Part shown: piece by piece, positions 2,597 to 15,973 of the stretch
Numbering within the stretch: position 1 is the first letter of the stretch
Layout of the letters: every line of letters begins with the position of its first letter
Source of the DNA: a virus
Taxonomy: Duplodnaviria > Caudoviricetes
DNA: 60,408 nt
IMG/VR virus record: IMGVR_UViG_3300021961_000099
Span: 1-60,408 of that record
Reading direction: 5' to 3' (one strand)
Made by a program: the position numbers and the translations under genes
Notes under the pieces: model-generated
Seen by the model: only the letters and a program-made list of their open reading frames with translations
What the model was told of the DNA's origin: nothing
Databases searched by the model: none

Positions 2597-3979
2597 TTAT
2601 ACAAATAAATTAAAGTCTTCATCTTCATCAGCTCTTCTTAAAACTGAATCAGGGATTATGTTTTTACCTTCAGCACCTGGTATATTTAACACCATTAGAT
2701 TTGGCATATCTCCAATACACTCAGGTAATCTTTGTAGATTTTTATTATCAACTAATGATAAATATTGTAGATTAGGTAATTGACAAACCGCTTCAGGAAG
2801 TGTCGCAATACAATTAACAAAGTTAAGTGCTTGTAATTGTTTGAATCTACTGATATCTTCAGGGATGTTTAGACTTATATTGTCACCACCTCTAGACGAG
2901 TTTTTGAATGTAAATCTTTTAAGGTTTTCAGGTAATGTTGCAAATAACTCATCAAACCCATAAAGTGCAACAAACTTAGACGCTGAGTCGCCAGGGTAAT
3001 CAATAACAACTTTATCACCTTTTTCACCCGCTAAGGATTTCATGAATTCAGGTTTGAAGAATTGTTTTAGTCCTTCCTCATTTGTATTTAAGAAGTCAAC
3101 AAGGTTAATTTGTCTATCGTCAGCATCCATGAATTGATTATCAGGGAAGTGGAATTGATATCTGTTTGCTGGTAATCCTGAAACTTCACCTGTTTCTTTT
3201 CCGTATGATTTGAATGTTGTTGGTTTGTTTGGAATTACAACATATAAAGGTCCTCTATTAATATATCTATCAAACCAACTTAATCCTGGTGATGATGTAC
3301 ACCATGTTGTTTCTCCTCTTCTTCCTTCACTGTGAGATCCACCATAAAAACAAGCTGCGTCTTTACCAAGTTGTCCTTTGTCTGAAATTTTAGCAACAGT
3401 CCAATCTTGACCTCTATAAACAATATCAGCACCAGGGTGAGCATATGTTTTAGAAGCCTCTTTTTTCTCCTCTTTAGTTGCTTTAGTTTTTTCCAAACTG
3501 AAATCTTTTACATTGTCATAAAGTGTTTCGATTGTCAAATTGTCGATGTTACGAAGTTCTAGTGGTAGTCTATTTTTAAACCTTTCGTACTTCTGTAGAT
3601 TGGTCGTAACTTTATACAAATCTTCCATGAACAAGTCTTGGAATTGTTTAAGTGCTGATCTATACTGACCTGATTGAGGATCTACAATATTTAATGGGTG
3701 ATCTGCAGGTAACTTTGGTGTTACATAGTTTTTCAATAACCACTGAGTGTATTTACCGATCTTAACTCGGTCCATATCTTGTGGTTTAAGATTATTAACA
3801 TCCATCCCTTCCGGAAGTTTTGAGGTTGGGTCTGCCGCAATCAAGGCCAACAATGTTTCAAACGGCATGATACCTTTTTTTCCCTTTTCTTTTGGTTTTA
3901 CAAACTTATCAAAAAGTACTTGAAATCTTGAACTTTCAACAATGAGATCTCTTAATAGACTGGTAAATCTAAGTGACAT
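2597..3979 (-). CDS. Protein with a central WCT-motif (PcfJ-like) region and C-terminal leucine-rich repeats
   Basis: LRRs: IPEDISRFKQLQALNFVN, LPEAVCQLPNLQYLSLVDN, LPECIGDMPNLMVLNIPG; AACFYG...TTWCT motif; TATTTAT upstream (3996-4002). Confidence 0.75.
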   Translation of the reverse strand: MSLRFTSLLRDLIVESSRFQVLFDKFVKPKEKGKKGIMPFETLLALIAADPTSKLPEGMDVNNLKPQDMDRVKIGKYTQWLLKNYVTPKLPADHPLNIVDPQSGQYRSALKQFQDLFMEDLYKVTTNLQKYERFKNRLPLELRNIDNLTIETLYDNVKDFSLEKTKATKEEKKEASKTYAHPGADIVYRGQDWTVAKISDKGQLGKDAACFYGGSHSEGRRGETTWCTSSPGLSWFDRYINRGPLYVVIPNKPTTFKSYGKETGEVSGLPANRYQFHFPDNQFMDADDRQINLVDFLNTNEEGLKQFFKPEFMKSLAGEKGDKVVIDYPGDSASKFVALYGFDELFATLPENLKRFTFKNSSRGGDNISLNIPEDISRFKQLQALNFVNCIATLPEAVCQLPNLQYLSLVDNKNLQRLPECIGDMPNLMVLNIPGAEGKNIIPDSVLRRADEDEDFNLFV

Positions 3980-4020
3980 ATATAATTATTTCTTAATAAA
4001 TATTTGAATGTATAAAAAAA

Positions 4021-4860
4021 TTAGTAATTCATGATAAGTAATTCTTCCCCCATGTTTTGTTTCTCTCCCTTTTTAGCCGCTGCTGCTTTTGCAAACTCTT
4101 TTCTTATCCAAGTGTACTGATCTTCGGGAAACCATTCATGGAGCAAGTCAAAGTCATAATATGATAACGAAAACTTACCTTGAACCCCATGTAAAACCTT
4201 TGCTAACCTTTCATGATCCTGTCTATCAAAATCATGATTTGAATAATAATTTTCTGTTTTCCAATAAGGTGGATCAAGATAAATGTATGTTGAAGGTGAA
4301 TCGTATTTTTGTATTACATCGGAGAAGTCCATATTCTCAACATCGGTAATTTTCAAAAAGTGATCTACCCACTCGGGTTTAGATAACTTATCACGAAATG
4401 TAAGATACTTCGATTTATACTTTCCTTTAAGATCAATAAAGTTGGATGTCTCAGGTTTTGATCCACTAAACACCTGAGTCAGAATATAAACATATTTAGC
4501 AGCAACCTCGTAATCGCCAGGTTCAAGGCTGAAACCTTGATTAAAAATTTCAGCCTGAAAGCTTACGAATTGTTCACGATAAATTTCAGGGGTAATATCA
4601 ACACCTTGTTTTTGACAATCAATATTATTAATTGCTCTTAATAATTCAGTTGGGTTTTGGACGCACTTGAATAGGTTGTAATTGAGTGGATTGAAGTCGT
4701 TATAGACAACTTTTTTTAGATTTGGGAATTGTTTGAGGTCCATATTATAAAAACACCAAAACATTCCTCCAAAAGTCTCTAAATAGACTTCCATATTCTT
4801 ATCATAGAAAGGGACAATCCACTTTCCAATTTTACTTTTTCCTCCAATATAACTTAACAT
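4021..4860 (-). CDS. dam: DNA adenine methyltransferase (Dam/D12 class)
   Basis: N-terminal SYIGGK, E-T-F-G-G motif I variant, YND, catalytic YLDPPY, C-terminal EELLIMNY. Confidence 0.9.
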   Translation of the reverse strand: MLSYIGGKSKIGKWIVPFYDKNMEVYLETFGGMFWCFYNMDLKQFPNLKKVVYNDFNPLNYNLFKCVQNPTELLRAINNIDCQKQGVDITPEIYREQFVSFQAEIFNQGFSLEPGDYEVAAKYVYILTQVFSGSKPETSNFIDLKGKYKSKYLTFRDKLSKPEWVDHFLKITDVENMDFSDVIQKYDSPSTYIYLDPPYWKTENYYSNHDFDRQDHERLAKVLHGVQGKFSLSYYDFDLLHEWFPEDQYTWIRKEFAKAAAAKKGEKQNMGEELLIMNY

Positions 4861-4866
4861 AGTTCT

Positions 4867-4895
4867 AATATACTATTTTTGATATTTATTTTCAA
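4867..4895 (-). promoter_or_regulatory. Sigma70-like promoter TTGAAA-N17-TATATT for dam
   Basis: Exact 17-nt spacing; the same pattern recurs before ssb, primase and 21923..22141. Confidence 0.55.
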
Positions 4896-4919
4896 CTAAC
4901 TAATAATTAAATTATAGGT

Positions 4920-5081
4920 ATGGAAAAAGAAAAAGCAACAGAAGTGAAATGTCACACATGTGATGAAAGTAAGCAAGTTAAAAATACTCAAAGATTTGTT
5001 TTAATTTTTGGTTCTATATTCACCTTTTTTGGAATTTACGGAATCATATCTTTTGTGAAAGATATAATTTCTATGTTTTAG
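4920..5081 (+). CDS. Small membrane protein with CxxC (53 aa: [53 protein letters not shown])
   Basis: Translated manually (below the ORF-track cutoff); fills the gap between dam and dnaJ; one TM helix; TATTTAT at 4883-4889. Confidence 0.65.
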
Positions 5082-5997
5082 TTTTCGAAAACTTAACAAA
5101 TTGGTTAATAATTAAATCTCCTACAGTTTCTAATCTAAACCCTTTTAATTTGACTCTCAAAGGTATTGATGTGTCTATATTTTCTGGTAGTTTAACATTT
5201 AAAGCACCTTCAGGATGTGGAACATTGATTGATCCTTGAAGTAGTTCGTCTAAAGTCATGAAAGCGTTAAACACCAAATTATTACCTAATTTGTCAAAGT
5301 TTTTTTCAGGTTTTAGATCAATTCTCACAATCAAATCACCGTGAATACCATTTTTGAAGTCCCCCATACCATTAACCCTCAAAAATTGACCATTATCTAC
5401 ACCGTGAGGTAAATTTATTTCTATTGTTTTCATTTCGGTGGAAGAACCATTACCGTTACATGAGAAACACATTTCTTTGAAATGGAATCCTCTACCTGAA
5501 CAACTTTCACAAGGTGTTTGGACAATCTGAACAAACATTCCACTTCCCATCTGTCTTACAACCATTCCCGATCCGTTACAAACTCTACAAGAAATTTTTT
5601 CACCACCAGTACCGTTACATGGTTCACATTTATTTTGTCTACGATAAGTTATATTTTGTTTTCCTCCTTTGTAAGATGTTAGAACACCAATTGGTATGGA
5701 TATATTTGTAGTATGTACTGGTCTTTGTGTATTTCTTCTTTGCCCAAACATAGAATTGAAAGCGTCATTGAAATTAAACCCTCCTCCGAAAGGGTTATTT
5801 TTGGAATTATCGTATTCTTTTCTTTTATTTTCATCTCCAAGTACATCATATGCTTGTGATATTTTTTTGAATTTGTTTTCGTCACCACCTGCGTCTGGAT
5901 GATTTTCTTTAGCCAACTTTCTATAAGTTTTTTTAATTTCTTCTTGAGAGGCGTTTTCTTTTACTCCTAAAACATCGTATAGATTTTCAGTATTCAT
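5071..5997 (-). CDS. dnaJ: DnaJ (Hsp40) co-chaperone
   Basis: J domain with HPD, short G/F region, four CxxCxGxG repeats, C-terminal domain (GDLIVRI). Confidence 0.95.
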
Positions 5998-6026
5998 TTA
6001 CTATTTTTGATTTGTATAATTTAGTT

Positions 6027-6662
6027 ATGGATTATTTAATTGTTTTATTTAAAAATAAAAAAAGAAAAAAAATAATAAACAAGTTTAAAACATTGGATCG
6101 TGCGAAACTTTTTTTCCAAAAAAAAATTGAGGAGAGTAACTCAGTGGTTTTCGAAAAATCGGTTGAAAACGCGTCTCCTTGTGATTACGAATTAGGATTA
6201 TTAAGTTCGTCGATTGAGGATTTTGAAAGTTACTTTATAAAGGATTCATTAGGTAGACAAATTAAAGTTGATATTGATAGTGGTTACAAAGTAATTGATC
6301 TAAAACCTTTTAAAGTTCCTGAAAGTTTATATGATGTAAATTTAAAAACTAAAATTACATTCGAAAAATTTATGAATCTATATCTTAAAGATAAGTCAAT
6401 AAAGTTGTTATCGAAATTAAACAACAAAGTTGTTTTACAAAATGATTCAGATGTTAAACTTTTTTCACTTAAAAATGAAATTGAGTCAAATCGATTTTTA
6501 AAAGAGTTAAATGATTATTTAATTTCTGAAAATAGAATGGATTGTATTATTGTCAATGACACTTCTAAATCACAAAAAAAATATCTTTATGATATTTTGA
6601 GTGATATGGGTTTGGAAAAAAAATTACTTTACAGAAGAACTACTACTTTTAAACCAAGATAG
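6027..6662 (+). CDS. Hypothetical basic protein
   Basis: Long ORF divergent from dnaJ; first ATG at 6027. Confidence 0.75.
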   Translation: MDYLIVLFKNKKRKKIINKFKTLDRAKLFFQKKIEESNSVVFEKSVENASPCDYELGLLSSSIEDFESYFIKDSLGRQIKVDIDSGYKVIDLKPFKVPESLYDVNLKTKITFEKFMNLYLKDKSIKLLSKLNNKVVLQNDSDVKLFSLKNEIESNRFLKELNDYLISENRMDCIIVNDTSKSQKKYLYDILSDMGLEKKLLYRRTTTFKPR

Positions 6663-6950
6663 TATTTTACTTCTTAGTGATTTTTTGTTTTGATATTCTT
6701 TTTTTGGTTCTTCGATCGGAGGTACATAATCTACATTAATAAATACATGTTCCGTACCAGACATGTCTACTGAGAACCTATTAAAATTATTATCTATTTT
6801 TCTGAAGTTACTTTGTACTTTTTTATAGTCTTCAGAATTTAATTCATAAACACAAATCATTTTACCTTGAGGGAAAAGCGTTTGCATCGCATCAGTGACC
6901 AAAGCTAAGTTTTCTATTATGTTAATAGGACTTTCTTGATTTTCTCCCAT
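6624..6950 (-). CDS. Hypothetical protein
   Basis: 108 aa ORF in an operon-like run. Confidence 0.65.
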   Translation of the reverse strand: MGENQESPINIIENLALVTDAMQTLFPQGKMICVYELNSEDYKKVQSNFRKIDNNFNRFSVDMSGTEHVFINVDYVPPIEEPKKEYQNKKSLRSKILSWFKSSSSSVK

Positions 6951-12111: not shown

Positions 12112-12674
12112 TTTTTTTCCTGTCTTGATGCCACTATTTTACTCCACTTAATTTTGAACTTTTCGTAATAAGTTTGTAATTTGTTTATCATTTCTAAATA
12201 TTCTTCATCAACTTTGATCATTTGTCCATTGATGTAAATTCCGTTAGGTTCGTTGATTGTAAAAAAGAATTCAAGATCCAATTCCAAAATTTGGCCTGAC
12301 CATTCAACATTTTCAGAAAAAACATTCATTTTATCAAATTTTACAAGTTCCGCAACACCCGTCCTGAATTCGTCAACACTTTCAACAAATGCGTTTTTTT
12401 CATCAGTAGTAAGTTGTAAGTTAACTTCACTTTCCCCATGTAAGATCAAAACATTTCCTTGGATTTTATATCCCTTTTGTTTATCATGTTTTTTACCTAT
12501 CTCGTCAGAATCTTTTTTTTCATTTGCAGTTTCCATACTGTCTTTTTCCATTACAGGTTGTTCTGTGAGTAATGAGTATTTTTTTCTTATTTCGGATTTA
12601 GTTGACTCATTAATATTCGAAAATATTTTTCTAGAGCTATCAACTAATTTTTTTATTTCTTCGTAGTTATTCAT
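12108..12674 (-). CDS. Hypothetical protein
   Basis: 188 aa; N-terminal INE/LLTEQ motifs like the putative head-internal proteins. Confidence 0.7.
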   Translation of the reverse strand: MNNYEEIKKLVDSSRKIFSNINESTKSEIRKKYSLLTEQPVMEKDSMETANEKKDSDEIGKKHDKQKGYKIQGNVLILHGESEVNLQLTTDEKNAFVESVDEFRTGVAELVKFDKMNVFSENVEWSGQILELDLEFFFTINEPNGIYINGQMIKVDEEYLEMINKLQTYYEKFKIKWSKIVASRQEKK

Positions 12675-13260
12675 TTTCTAACAGTTTTTTAAATTTTTCA
12701 AAATCAAATGCGGGACTCAAATCAGTTGTGAACTCGTCAAAGTTAGATCTCGTTAGTATACCTAAAAATGACTCTACTCCTTTCACTTTGGTATTATGTC
12801 CTATACAGTTCAAACTAATTTCAAATTCTTCGGACAACTTTTTACAAAGTTCTGCAGTTTTTTCTAACTGTAGATCTGTGTAAGGTTGCCAAAAAAAATA
12901 GTCCCTCCATTTTTTGTCTACAACATTTCCTTTATAAATATTACCAATCCAGTTAATATGATAATTTTTGAGTGGAACCTTTTCCAACCAACCCAAATTT
13001 TCCAAACAAATTACTATTGATTTGGCGTTTACCCTCTCATTTGTTGTGAATTTCCCATTTTTCATGTCATCCATAACTTTGATCACTTTACCTTCTCGAT
13101 CAACTAAATAATGAGGTAACTTGAGAGGGTTCCCTGAAAATCTATATTTTAGAGAAACCATATAATCAATAATGTTTCTCGATGTGTGAGTAAGAAGAAT
13201 TTGAGACTTTTCTTTTTCCTCTAAGAAATTTGAATGTTTTATTTTTTCTATTATCTCCAT
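12667..13260 (-). CDS. N-acetylmuramoyl-L-alanine amidase (Amidase_2-like); putative endolysin
   Basis: ILLTHT, PHYLVDREG, SIVICLEN, YTDLQL, IGHN and DLSPAFDF motifs. Confidence 0.75.
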   Translation of the reverse strand: MEIIEKIKHSNFLEEKEKSQILLTHTSRNIIDYMVSLKYRFSGNPLKLPHYLVDREGKVIKVMDDMKNGKFTTNERVNAKSIVICLENLGWLEKVPLKNYHINWIGNIYKGNVVDKKWRDYFFWQPYTDLQLEKTAELCKKLSEEFEISLNCIGHNTKVKGVESFLGILTRSNFDEFTTDLSPAFDFEKFKKLLENE

Positions 13261-13263
13261 ACA

Positions 13264-14433
13264 TTATTTTGTGTATTTTAATACTTTTTTTTCTATTTCT
13301 TCTAACTTTTGGTTGAATAGTTTTTCGTCAACCATCTGACCCTTGTCGTCAAATATTTGTCCATTGTCATTAACATAGTACTTGAATGGGACTTCAACTG
13401 GTACCTCAACTACTTTTTCGACAGGTACTTCCCTTACCAATTCAACTAACTTTTCGACAGGTACTTCTCTTACCACTTCAACTGGTACTTCAACATATTT
13501 TACAACCTCAACTACTTTTTCTACAGTTTTTGGTTCTGAATTTGTAATGTCTTCAGGTTTAGTTAAATCGTATAAATAACTTTCTGGAACTTCAATTTCA
13601 TCATAAAAATCTTCAACTTTGTCTTCTTCTTTTCTTCTGAAATTTTTGAATGCTTGGTTTGTCGAAATTACAAGTGCTATTGCTAACGGGTCAAAAACAA
13701 AAATTAATGTAAGAATAAAAAAGTTTGCCGTTTTTTTGATATCCCAACCTGTAATTTCGCTCAAATATTTTATAGCTCCTAATTCTCCTGATTCTATTTC
13801 CTGTGATGTCAGATCTAAAACTTGTAAATCCAATTTTGTAATACTATCATTTAAGTATTCTATTTTTTTTGAAATGGTGTCTTTACTGGTCTGTGCCACT
13901 TTCAACTGTAGTTCAAATGCCTTTCTATTACCGCCATTAGCCCTTGTAATCACTTGACCTGTGGTCCTATCTACCGTTTGAGTTGTAGTGTTTGTTGAAA
14001 GCGCGTTTCTTAGATTTGTTATGTCTTTATCTAAAGATTCCTTTTCTTTTTGATATTCCCCTTTTATTTCCTCAAATCTTGTTTTTTTGATTTCTATGTT
14101 TTCAATTTTTTTATTATTAATCTCAAGTCCTGCGATGTTTTTTTGAAACCCTGTTGATAGTAAACCATATATACCTATCGAAGTAAGGATAGAAAGGGTT
14201 ACTAATGCTATTGTTAGATATATTTTAAGTATACCATATGTTTCCTTCCATTTGTCATGAAGATAAGTTGCGATCGCGATTTTTGAAATTTCCAAAAAAG
14301 ATCCCATTATAATAACAGGAAGAGCGACTGCTGAGAAAATTATTGATAAACCTACGACACTATAATAAGCCGCAGTTCCTGATAGTCCTATTGCACAAAA
14401 CAACAAAAACCAAGGTAAAAATTTTTTATTCAT
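13264..14433 (-). CDS. Multi-pass membrane protein with a coiled coil and C-terminal VEKVVEVP repeats
   Basis: About 3 N-terminal TMs, a coiled coil, a further TM (FVFDPLAIALVI), then EKVVEV/EVPVE repeats; TATTTAT upstream (14450-14456). Confidence 0.75.
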   Translation of the reverse strand: MNKKFLPWFLLFCAIGLSGTAAYYSVVGLSIIFSAVALPVIIMGSFLEISKIAIATYLHDKWKETYGILKIYLTIALVTLSILTSIGIYGLLSTGFQKNIAGLEINNKKIENIEIKKTRFEEIKGEYQKEKESLDKDITNLRNALSTNTTTQTVDRTTGQVITRANGGNRKAFELQLKVAQTSKDTISKKIEYLNDSITKLDLQVLDLTSQEIESGELGAIKYLSEITGWDIKKTANFFILTLIFVFDPLAIALVISTNQAFKNFRRKEEDKVEDFYDEIEVPESYLYDLTKPEDITNSEPKTVEKVVEVVKYVEVPVEVVREVPVEKLVELVREVPVEKVVEVPVEVPFKYYVNDNGQIFDDKGQMVDEKLFNQKLEEIEKKVLKYTK

Positions 14434-14498
14434 TGATTCAGTTTATTAGATAAATATTAAAATAACTGAATTGGGGTCAAATATAAACCCTATTAAAA

Positions 14499-14528
14499 TA
14501 ATAAAACCCCCACCGGTACCAGTGGGGG
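14499..14528 (-). terminator. Intrinsic terminator after the sigma gene and putative RNA
   Basis: Minus strand: CCCCCACUG-GUAC-CGGUGGGGG-UUUUAUU. Confidence 0.85.
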
Positions 14529-14629
14529 AGTGTAGTTTCATCCTACCGTATAGATAGAATTGAGGAGTTGCACCTTGGTGACTTCAGGCACCTTCTGCCG
14601 AGTTATAAGGGTAATCTCGGTTCAACCCT
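14529..14629 (-). ncRNA. Putative structured non-coding RNA of unknown family
   Basis: GC-richer than its surroundings, no ORF; stems GGGUUG/CAACUC, CCGAG/CUCGG, GGUG/CACC and AUUCUAUC/GGUAGGAU; followed by a terminator. Confidence 0.5.
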
Positions 14630-14631
14630 TT

Positions 14632-15432
14632 TTATAGATAGTCAAACAATTCGGAAGATTCGTTTCGTAGTCTTCGTAAAGCTTTTTCTTTAATCTGACG
14701 AACTCGTTCTTTCGTCAATCCGAAGTCTGATCCGATATCTTCTAATGTTCGGGGCGTTCCTGTTAACCCAAAGTAATCCGCAACTATAATTCTTTCACGA
14801 TCGTCTAACACATCCAACAATCCAACAAGTTTTTGTTTTAAGATATCTTTAGTGTCAAACACAGCGTCAGGCAACTCAGCATCTTTATTTTCAATCATAT
14901 CTAAGAGTGTATCACCATCTTCATTGATGTTCATATCAAGATCGATAATTGATGGTAGTGTCGAGAATTTATCATCAAGTTTTTTTCCTGACTGTTCTAC
15001 TTCTTTTTTAGCTTTATGTAAATCTTGCACTACATTAACCGGTAGTCGAATTGTTCTTGCGTTATCGTTTAGTGACTGAATTATTGACTGTTTGATCCAC
15101 CACACTCCGTAAGAAATAAATCGTAAATCTTTTTCCCAATCAAAGTTTTTTATTGCCTTCATTAAACCAAGATTACCCTCAGCAATTAAATCAGACAAAT
15201 CAAGTCCTTGATTTTGATATTGTTTTGCAACCGTGATCACAAAACGAAGATTACCCTGAATCAATTCTTGTTCAATTCGTTTCCTTTCCGACATTGGTGT
15301 GTCGTCTGACTTCATTTTTTTTGCTAGTTCTCTTTCACGCTCTGCGGTCATTACCTTAATCTTTCTGATGTCTTTAAGGTAGTGAGCAATTTCTTCTTGA
15401 TTGATAGGTGCACCTGTGTTTTTGTCCTTCAT
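14632..15432 (-). CDS. rpoD: RNA polymerase sigma-70 factor, Bacteroidota RpoD-like (lacks region 1.1)
   Basis: NLRFVITVAKQYQNQGLDLSDLIAEGNLGL, FISYGVWWIKQSI, RTIRLP; region 4 TLEDIGSDFGLTKERVRQIKEKALRRLR. Confidence 0.93.
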   Translation of the reverse strand: MKDKNTGAPINQEEIAHYLKDIRKIKVMTAERERELAKKMKSDDTPMSERKRIEQELIQGNLRFVITVAKQYQNQGLDLSDLIAEGNLGLMKAIKNFDWEKDLRFISYGVWWIKQSIIQSLNDNARTIRLPVNVVQDLHKAKKEVEQSGKKLDDKFSTLPSIIDLDMNINEDGDTLLDMIENKDAELPDAVFDTKDILKQKLVGLLDVLDDRERIIVADYFGLTGTPRTLEDIGSDFGLTKERVRQIKEKALRRLRNESSELFDYL

Positions 15433-15442
15433 ATATGTATAA

Positions 15443-15973
15443 TTATAGTGTTTTGGAATATTCGTCTAACTTTTGTTTTTCAATCTCAGATAATGAATCC
15501 ATACCATTGATACTAATTTTGTCTAACAACTCATCTAGTGTCATGTTACAAGTTTTTGGTTTTCTCAAGTTGAGTAATAGGTCTGCAATGTCCATAAAAG
15601 ACTCTTCACCTTTTGATGGTTTAAACTCGTAATTAATTTTTGGTGGTGTTGGTTTGTGCTTTGTTGGTTTGGTTTTTCTCAACGACAATAAATGTTTAAG
15701 GTTGTCTTTTGGCATGTTTGATTCATTACTTTTTGGTTTTGGAACTAAAAAGTACTGAAAACAGTCAAGTTCATCATTAATTATATTGATCCAATCTGCA
15801 AATTCAGTGATTGTCAAATCTGACGCAAAATGAAAAATTGCATGTTTGTCTCCGAACATAAATTTAGCCTCTTTTGAAGACATTTGTTCGGCAATTCGTG
15901 TTGCAATTTCATTAGTTGTGATTTCTGAGTTTTCAACTGTACTATCAAAATAAACAAAAAGTAAGTAATTCAT
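15443..15973 (-). CDS. Hypothetical protein
   Basis: 176 aa; C-terminal LDELLDKISINGMDSLSEIEKQKL helix; TATATTTG (15995-16002) upstream. Confidence 0.7.
   Translation of the reverse strand: MNYLLFVYFDSTVENSEITTNEIATRIAEQMSSKEAKFMFGDKHAIFHFASDLTITEFADWINIINDELDCFQYFLVPKPKSNESNMPKDNLKHLLSLRKTKPTKHKPTPPKINYEFKPSKGEESFMDIADLLLNLRKPKTCNMTLDELLDKISINGMDSLSEIEKQKLDEYSKTL

Follow-up and report, generated by a model that had tools for sequence, protein, structure and literature searches.

The window analysed here, the whole of the 60,408-nucleotide (nt) virus record IMGVR_UViG_3300021961_000099 (estimated to be 21% complete), carries on its minus strand a gene for a sigma70-family factor, a gap of 198 nt and a gene for a protein of 389 amino acids (aa). 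Within the gap lies a small structured RNA with a core of about 95 nt followed by an intrinsic terminator. This element is one copy of a new RNA family, and its carriers are a lineage of uncultivated jumbo phages with records of up to about 292 kilobases (kb). The obvious reading would join the RNA to the sigma factor that precedes it. Its distribution corrects that reading: the RNA has no specific tie to the sigma gene, which is its upstream neighbour only and lies outside the element. What recurs beside the RNA in other phages is a gene for a protein of about 140 aa, here called ORF-X (ORF, open reading frame).

The RNA and its conserved fold

An earlier note on this DNA, drawn up without database searches, had described an unannotated structured RNA on the minus strand that starts right after the sigma stop codon, is richer in GC than the genome and encodes nothing. 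That description holds in each part. GC content is 0.45 over positions 14520-14639 and 0.329 over the whole window, and among the seven non-coding gaps of at least 80 nt only this one has a GC-rich 100-nt stretch (0.52; at most 0.39 in the others), as the remark about a single long GC-rich intergenic region had implied. In the roughly 135 nt that follow the sigma stop, the longest ORFs over the element measure 25-41 aa on either strand, none spans the core, and the cores of relatives differ by indels of 1-2 nt (columns 23, 43 and 91 of alignment A1); a conserved small protein-coding frame was not found. ARAGORN reports no transfer RNA or transfer-messenger RNA gene in the window, and no tandem repeats were found in 14350-14750.

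The proposed structure was judged on our main alignment, A4 (MAFFT, 62 distinct sequences), and on two further alignments, A1 (26 sequences) and A5 (28 more diverse sequences). In A4, 95.9% of cells are paired, as against 86.4% in shuffled alignments and at most 53% with slid partners, and the covariation score is 0.322, as against 0.155 shuffled and at most 0.113 slid; 0 of 500 shuffles score as high, in tests that the kinship of the sequences inflates. A1 and A5 agree with the structure obtained from A4.

The core opens with a candidate H-type pseudoknot of the consensus (A/U)GGG...CCGAG...CCC(U/A)...CUCGG, in which GGG pairs with the CCC lying between the two strands of P2, and its loops UUGAA, AUUA and (U/A)NAYAA are invariant. 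Hairpins P3, P4 and P5, the tail GAAAC, a short linker and the terminator follow in that order (Table 1). All five pairs of P2 are invariant in 62 of 62 sequences, which is compatible with pairing and otherwise uninformative. P3 shows changes on both sides at 4 of 4 pairs, appearing as GGUG/CACC, GAGA/UCUC, GGGA/UCCC or GAAC/GUUC. P4 closes with A-U in 32, G-U in 20, G-C in 9 and another combination in 1 of the 62 sequences, and its loop varies in length in divergent members; by eye the P4 loop UGAAAAU resembles a T-loop, a feature lost in those members. Both-side changes occur at 4 of the 8 pairs of P5, whose stem shrinks to 3-4 base pairs in divergent members, and at 5 of the 10 pairs of the terminator stem in relatives. 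The outer pair of the pseudoknot is A-U in 33, U-A in 20 and other in 9 sequences, both states being found on several P3 backgrounds, and its three G-C pairs are invariant. The many G-U cells within these helices, among them 31 U-G cells at one P5 pair and the 20 at the closing pair of P4, fix the strand as minus.

Two further candidate pairings were set aside. A closing stem GUU/AAC drawn by RNAalifold has zero covariation and is left open. A tertiary contact that would join the P3 loop to the nucleotide following CUCGGC (G-C 43, A-U 14, G-U 3, other 2) reflects essentially a single lineage split, and we do not claim it.

Much of the fold drawn by the earlier note survives this comparison. 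Its P2, its P3 (GGUG/CACC), its 8-base-pair hairpin, its strong terminator and its use of G-U pairs to favour the minus strand all agree with the alignment. Its P1 (GGGUUG/CAACUC) fares no better than shuffles, with 70.7% of cells paired; it shows no compensatory change, and at two of its pairs 35 and 58 of the 62 sequences have a mismatch. Its alternative P3 (GUGCCU/AGGUGC) pairs in only 52.2% of cells. Since both fail in relatives, the three-way junction as drawn is wrong, and the proposed pseudoknot stem takes the place of P1. The motif AAGGUGC does occur twice, at 14570-14576 and 14588-14594; this duplication is limited to the window's subtype of the element, and the alternative pairings that it was thought to allow are not conserved.

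Does the RNA belong to a described family? The comparison with Rfam that the earlier note had proposed bears out its statement that no family could be assigned. Against the 4227 covariance models of Rfam 15 there are 0 matches at gathering score in the whole window and 0 in six related loci. A permissive scan (E <= 10) of 14400-14700 returned only L10_leader, drum and PyrG_leader at chance level, the top sub-threshold scores being 18.2 bits for drum (threshold 43) and 19.2 for L10_leader (threshold 44), with E of 0.31-0.44. In the literature open to search, to which supplements and subscription journals do not belong, we provisionally found no description of the RNA or of the cassette discussed below; one preprint, as far as its available part goes, deals with an unrelated reverse-transcriptase RNA array and does not describe this RNA.

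Table 1. Coordinates of the RNA, its neighbours and related elements (window positions unless a locus is named)
Feature	Position	Strand	Details
Core of the RNA	14535..14629	-	conserved, about 95 nt; pseudoknot domain, three hairpins, tail GAAAC; models R1/R2, covariation
Pseudoknot stem (candidate)	14608..14629	-	AGGG (14629-14626) / CCCU (14611-14608); crosses P2
P2	14598..14620	-	CCGAG (14620-14616) / CUCGG (14602-14598)
P3 hairpin	14577..14592	-	GGUG (14592-14589) / CACC (14580-14577); 8-nt loop CCUGAAGU
P4 hairpin	14563..14575	-	AGG (14575-14573) / CCU (14565-14563); 7-nt loop UGCAACU
P5 hairpin	14540..14560	-	AUUCUAUC (14560-14553) / GGUAGGAU (14547-14540); loop UAUAC
Intrinsic terminator	14497..14528	-	stem 14528-14507, 9 pairs, 7 G-C, then U-tract; tail TTTTATTATT
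Sigma70-family gene	14632..15432	-	266 aa; Pfam Sigma70_r2 1.2e-16, r4 4e-16, r1_2 2.3e-07
Sigma stop codon	14634-14632	-	TAA
389-aa ORF	13264..14433	-	downstream neighbour of the RNA; no Pfam or PHROG match
Amidase_2 ORF	12667-13260	-	N-acetylmuramoyl-L-alanine amidase (Pfam); directly after the 389-aa ORF
Bridging contig, X6 record 17	14570-14760		metatranscriptome
Bridging contig, X7 record 24	14599-14712		metatranscriptome
Bacterial copy, L176	3022-3117	+	contig of a metagenome-assembled genome; P5 longer, terminator not obvious
RNA-B	L007:3836-3975	+
RNA-B	L008:3836-3975
RNA-B	L043:6240-6385
RNA-B	L051:5513-5658
Third RNA	L068:5530-5640	+	unit of about 60 nt with promoter and terminator; convergent with a divergent ORF-X
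Near-complete genome with the element, without ORF-X			291,867 nt, 99% complete
Near-complete genome with the element, without ORF-X			272,576 nt, 93% complete

Distribution, genomic context and transcription

Two covariance models were built, R1 for core and terminator and R2 for the core only. R1 finds exactly one copy in the window (164.5 bits, E 7e-43), and R2 likewise finds one. A search of viral contigs with the sigma protein gave 363 related stretches, and the best 80 of the 363 were analysed as sigma loci. The element is present in 44 of these 80, with R1 scores of 113-169 bits, and the remaining R1 matches are weak antisense matches to the terminator, or noise. Such homologues 3' of sigma are what the earlier note had suggested collecting. 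An exact-pattern scan places the element on 94 viral contigs, in a single copy each, and a looser pattern found at least 119 metagenome stretches, from which three GC-rich chance matches (L192, L269 and L292) were removed, leaving at least 116 real ones. Four large records, two of them 93-99% complete, hold one copy each. Median nucleotide identity to the window, taken over 31 distinct loci, is 0.80 in the core; sigma reaches 0.78 and the downstream gene, in its first 600 nt, 0.75.

Compared by BLAST with 50,697 phage records, the region gave a sole match, 78 nt long and inside sigma, and no cultured phage has a relative of the sigma protein above 40% identity. Of 185,579 species genomes, one alone gave a match, on a 5.7-kb contig from a metagenome-assembled genome (MAG) titled Crocinitomicaceae bacterium. 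The element in this contig (L176) lies directly 5' of two uncharacterised ORFs of 290 and 243 aa, and the flanks carry a PETase-like secreted hydrolase with a type IX secretion system (T9SS) sorting domain and a Mg-chelatase/ComM-type gene. Searching 151 genomes of the MAG's family with R2 returned the MAG itself only, under filters strict enough that absence from the others is not shown.

The sequence before the element points to how it is transcribed. Among 121 distinct 60-nt contexts upstream, 35 have a perfect TAnnTTTG box that ends 8-30 nt before the GGG of the pseudoknot, a frequency to be set against 2.1% for random positions in these loci. A TTTG often stands about 19 nt further upstream, and we take the two together to be the -7/-33 promoter type of Bacteroidota. 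This promoter type and the MAG match point to a Bacteroidota host, so that the phages probably infect members of this phylum. Some loci have an upstream gene that runs the other way, which means that the RNA is transcribed independently there. Of the 86 contexts without a box, 80 show a stop triplet within the last 14 nt before GGG, and by inspection many of these copies directly follow the stop codon of sigma, of a Zn-ribbon ORF or of a 184-aa ORF. The element is a self-contained movable RNA gene, often with its own promoter.

The window copy is of the box-less kind. It starts 3-5 nt after the sigma stop and is preceded by the sequence for the sigma C-terminus, which holds only a partial box; because of this position and the lack of a good promoter box, the window copy is probably the 3' end of the sigma mRNA, ending at the terminator, and has presumably lost a promoter or never possessed one. 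The metatranscriptomes that the earlier note had proposed to consult lend this some support, since contigs from two runs, each of a different study, extend across the sigma stop into the element; being contigs, which do not show transcript ends, and with DNA carry-over possible, they are weak evidence for co-transcription. A further contig, from X5, spans exactly 14483-14645 and was set aside, its library being probably DNA.

Why does the RNA lie behind sigma at all? In 36 of the 80 sigma loci no element occurs within 3 kb. The interval between sigma and the 389-aa gene is, in relatives, an empty stretch of about 100 nt, the element alone, the element with inserted genes on one side of it or the other, or up to 3 kb of other genes: it is a hypervariable insertion hotspot. 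The element also occurs in at least five phage contexts unrelated to sigma and on the one bacterial contig. In one of these phage contexts (L082/L090) it adjoins a DnaJ-like ORF and a DNA methyltransferase (PHROG match), in another (L162) a glycosyltransferase, and L124/L100, L207 and L204 represent further ones. Because so many sigma loci lack a copy and the element turns up in unrelated surroundings, its link to sigma is incidental, an accident of the hotspot.

The hotspot has contents of its own. In loci L034, L043-L046, L051 and L061-L064 (region 3800-6800), the inserted ORFs include one to three tandem ORFs of about 270-300 aa starting MNVLSLFDGMSCGQ, presumably cytosine-5 DNA methyltransferases to judge from this motif, an ORF starting MACIYKIEN...YIGQT that we assume to encode a GIY-YIG-like endonuclease, and a Zn-ribbon ORF of about 150 aa with a weak Lar-like match (E about 1e-3). 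As for the window's own genes, the 389-aa and Amidase_2 ORFs (12667-14433, minus strand) may form a lysis-related unit starting past the terminator. The ORF upstream of sigma (15443-15973, minus strand) has a DUF6576 match at its end (E 2.4e-11), and its conservation among relatives, 27-77% aa identity, is far lower than the 67-96% of sigma.

ORF-X and the possible role of the RNA

ORF-X encodes about 140 aa with an N-terminus like MSLLRESIRK.LLLEKKIAQ (alignment A3), lies on the strand opposite to the RNA, and reaches with its stop codon to the element's terminator tail or into it. Of the 94 viral contigs, 39 have it convergent and adjacent, 2 upstream and divergent and 49 not at all, and 4 are not evaluable; in the metagenome stretches the corresponding counts are 44 of 116 convergent and adjacent, 7 elsewhere, 52 without and 13 not evaluable. 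In every evaluable phage context away from sigma (L082/L090, L124/L100, L162/L094, the L207 group and L204) ORF-X adjoins the element, so the pair looks like a unit that moves. The terminator, standing in these relatives between two convergent genes, may act bidirectionally. The stem is nearly palindromic, and the terminator scan flags both strands.

The coupling of ORF-X to RNA extends beyond this element. The 80 sigma loci contain 23 ORF-X genes, and each of them faces a small, convergent RNA-like gene at its 3' end; that gene is the present element in 14 cases, a second conserved RNA in 8 and a third, short RNA in 1. The second, RNA-B, is about 135 nt long, has the same type of promoter (TTTG...TATCTTTG) and is convergent with ORF-X where the element is absent. 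Its two sequence groups are 73% identical with a few compensatory pairs, and it has no Rfam match. In L008 and L010 RNA-B is followed, on its own strand, by a 184-aa ORF that has no detectable relation to ORF-X.

What kind of protein is ORF-X? Searches of Pfam, PHROGs, PADLOC and PDB sequences gave no match that would identify it, and its 191 close and 306 representative-cluster relatives are all unnamed and have no Pfam domain. Ten longer relatives were scanned, and two carry an additional domain: P0226 (379 aa) joins an N-terminal Zeta-toxin-like kinase part, which matches Zeta_toxin/AAA_33, to a C-terminal ORF-X-like domain, and P0233 carries UPF0227. These fusions hint at a domain of conflict systems.

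For this new RNA family we tentatively favour, at rather less than even confidence, the reading that it serves as a protein-binding partner RNA of ORF-X, with the window copy co-transcribed with sigma. The RNA would act through its three-dimensional fold; its original partner would be the convergent ORF-X, whose protein it might restrain or counteract in the manner of an RNA antidote, although we assign the role of partner or antidote with low confidence. The window copy would then be an orphan that has kept the fold in the absence of a phage-encoded ORF-X, and it might target an ORF-X-like protein of the host or of a rival element, or have a second role independent of ORF-X. Such orphans are functional, since compensatory changes are seen also within the GGUG subtype that has no ORF-X and the fold thus keeps compensating in that lineage. 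A bolder version would make the element and ORF-X a new two-gene conflict cassette, in which a convergent pseudoknotted RNA, neither a repeat array nor a simple antisense, neutralises a new protein family, lone phage RNAs serve as anti-defence decoys against ORF-X-like proteins of hosts or rival phages and the alternative RNAs are alternative antidotes; this we regard as doubtful.

A good deal weighs against the partner-RNA reading. The two near-complete genomes listed in Table 1 have the element and no ORF-X at E <= 0.01, in a search whose positive control reached 1.8e-58, so the RNA must work there without a phage ORF-X; the other six records searched, the window included, gave no ORF-X either. 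The window's subtype (P3 GGUG/CACC, CUGA loop) is without ORF-X in 26 of 26 cases. All 39 ORF-X-linked copies, together with 23 copies that have no ORF-X, carry an ACGA loop, and the split between CUGA and ACGA may be a single lineage event. The type of RNA does not follow the relatedness of ORF-X: the ORF-X of L007, paired with a different RNA, is 53% identical to that of L075, closer than several element-paired ORF-X proteins (31-44%), which argues against tight RNA-protein specificity. Tandem repeats like those of type III antitoxins were not found in the element. The assignment of ORF-X to the BECR/RelE-like RNases found no reproducible profile match in our sequence searches: of 12 members tested for DUF4258 (RelE-like), 1 gave a match, whose E of 1.1e-3 falls short of the curated cut-off, and scans of 10 and of 56 members gave 0, and a protein-atlas link to PBECR nucleases (score 0.77) is a lead only. 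Transcription is seen in contigs, not raw reads, so that depth and uncovered parts are uninterpretable. As to the fold, besides the inflation of the shuffle tests by kinship, folding energy on the minus strand is unremarkable (z = -1.37, 21 of 200 shuffles as good), and it is conservation and covariation that carry the case for the RNA; at -35.0 kcal/mol the consensus nested fold falls short of the minimum free energy (MFE) structure at -40.5; and the pseudoknot, with one covarying pair and 9 exceptions among 62 sequences, is the least certain of the predicted helices.

How else might these observations be explained? The earlier note had imagined a sigma- or RNA polymerase-binding RNA; a decoy like 6S RNA, suited to the phage's sigma, would be one such. 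The element does adjoin sigma in the window and in many relatives, yet the sigma loci that lack it, the contigs, loci and bacterial MAG that carry it with no sigma nearby, the many unrelated genes inserted in the same general hotspot and the lack of resemblance to 6S RNA in Rfam leave this idea largely refuted by distribution, and we give it almost no credence. Of the link to sigma, co-transcription in the window is probable and a functional tie to sigma or RNA polymerase is unsupported. Might the element be a riboswitch or attenuator, with the pseudoknot as an aptamer that controls read-through of the terminator into the 389-aa and amidase genes? In the window the H-type pseudoknot, whose loops are invariant, is indeed followed by a terminator and a same-strand gene, and the bacterial copy stands directly 5' of an ORF with no obvious terminator. 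Rfam returns no riboswitch, however, and three hairpins (about 60 nt) separate the pseudoknot from the terminator; no antiterminator, and upstream no sequence complementary to the terminator's 5' half, was seen by inspection of the alignment or of the MFE and centroid folds, no dedicated search having been run. On 39 of 94 and 44 of 116 contigs the element is followed by a gene of the opposite strand, and what lies downstream changes with the context (the 389-aa gene, convergent ORF-X or others), so that a conserved same-strand association is lacking; we consider such a switch very improbable. A nuclease-resistant stabiliser or processing element at the 3' end of the upstream mRNA, with no role in trans, would suit the stop triplets that lie within 14 nt of 80 of the 86 box-less copies, behind three types of upstream ORF. 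It would leave unexplained the 35 of 121 contexts with a promoter of their own and the divergent upstream genes that offer no mRNA to protect, a plain terminator hairpin would suffice for the purpose, and invariant loop sequences would be unneeded; it is improbable.

Two other mechanisms would place the activity in the RNA itself or in its convergence with ORF-X. In a cis-antisense arrangement of type I kind, read-through of the convergent genes would give complementary RNAs that silence ORF-X, and copies without ORF-X would be leftovers. The convergent genes do overlap by a few bases at their 3' ends (L060 and L075, for example, have the stop of ORF-X within the terminator tail), the spot beside ORF-X is taken by any of three unrelated small RNA genes, which would suit a mechanism independent of RNA sequence, and the terminator scores on both strands. 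If the terminator does work both ways, however, it is all that the two transcripts share; ORF-X is no small hydrophobic peptide like the type I toxins; and the idea of leftovers fails, as the fold is under selection in lineages without ORF-X and two near-complete genomes have the element and no ORF-X. We think this quite unlikely. A self-cleaving or otherwise catalytic RNA, with the pseudoknot as ribozyme core in a selfish or processing element that might, for example, free itself from the sigma mRNA, would account for invariant unpaired UUGAA, AUUA, ACAA, C-R-GAA, CAA and GAAA beside P3-P5 that vary in length and loop, for the patchy, mobile spread in phage hotspots, and for the frequency of box-less copies close behind a stop triplet, where release from the upstream mRNA would be useful. 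No Rfam ribozyme family matches, no candidate cleavage site can be defined, and the pairing with ORF-X and the possession of promoter and terminator require no catalysis; a ribozyme is thus unlikely.

Whatever its role, the family adds a well-supported class of structured RNA, with hundreds of natural variants and clear covariation, from poorly known large environmental phages, probably of Bacteroidota, in which few regulatory RNAs have been described. A mobile RNA gene is here repeatedly coupled to one uncharacterised protein family, and this coupling of RNA and ORF-X yields a directly testable RNA-protein hypothesis. Should the partner-RNA reading prove correct, it may add a new way for phages to employ RNA in genetic conflicts.

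Comparison with known systems

The antitoxin RNAs of type III toxin-antitoxin (TA) systems, such as ToxI, CptI and TenpI, are small structured RNA genes with their own promoter and terminator beside a small protein gene, and orphan copies of ToxI occur in phages. The element resembles them as a structured RNA gene with promoter and terminator that adjoins a small protein gene on mobile or phage DNA. Type III antitoxin RNAs, however, which bind and neutralise an endoribonuclease toxin, are tandem arrays of 34-47-nt repeats that precede the toxin gene on its own strand, whereas the element has no repeat array, ORF-X is convergent with it and not downstream on the same strand, and the window has no ORF-X at all. 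Nor does ORF-X match a PADLOC model or, reproducibly, a Pfam toxin family, and the type of RNA does not track its relatedness.

In type I TA systems with a convergent antisense RNA overlapping at the 3' end (par RNA I/RNA II, bsrG/SR4, txpA/RatA), RNA and protein genes also converge on a common terminator region. Unlike these, ORF-X has about 140 aa and is not a short hydrophobic peptide, and the element is conserved as a fold that persists without the protein gene. With the preQ1-II/III, SAM-II/V and guanidine-III aptamers the element shares a short pseudoknot with invariant loops and a terminator downstream; it differs from these H-type pseudoknot riboswitches in that it is equipped with a promoter and a terminator of its own and that many loci have no same-strand gene downstream. 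Small RNAs derived from 3' untranslated regions, such as CpxQ and SroC, share the terminator of their mRNA and act by a short single-stranded seed. The window RNA is like them in that it probably lies at the 3' end of the sigma transcript and uses its terminator, but its conservation resides in a compact fold and its junctions, and elsewhere the same RNA is a free-standing gene.

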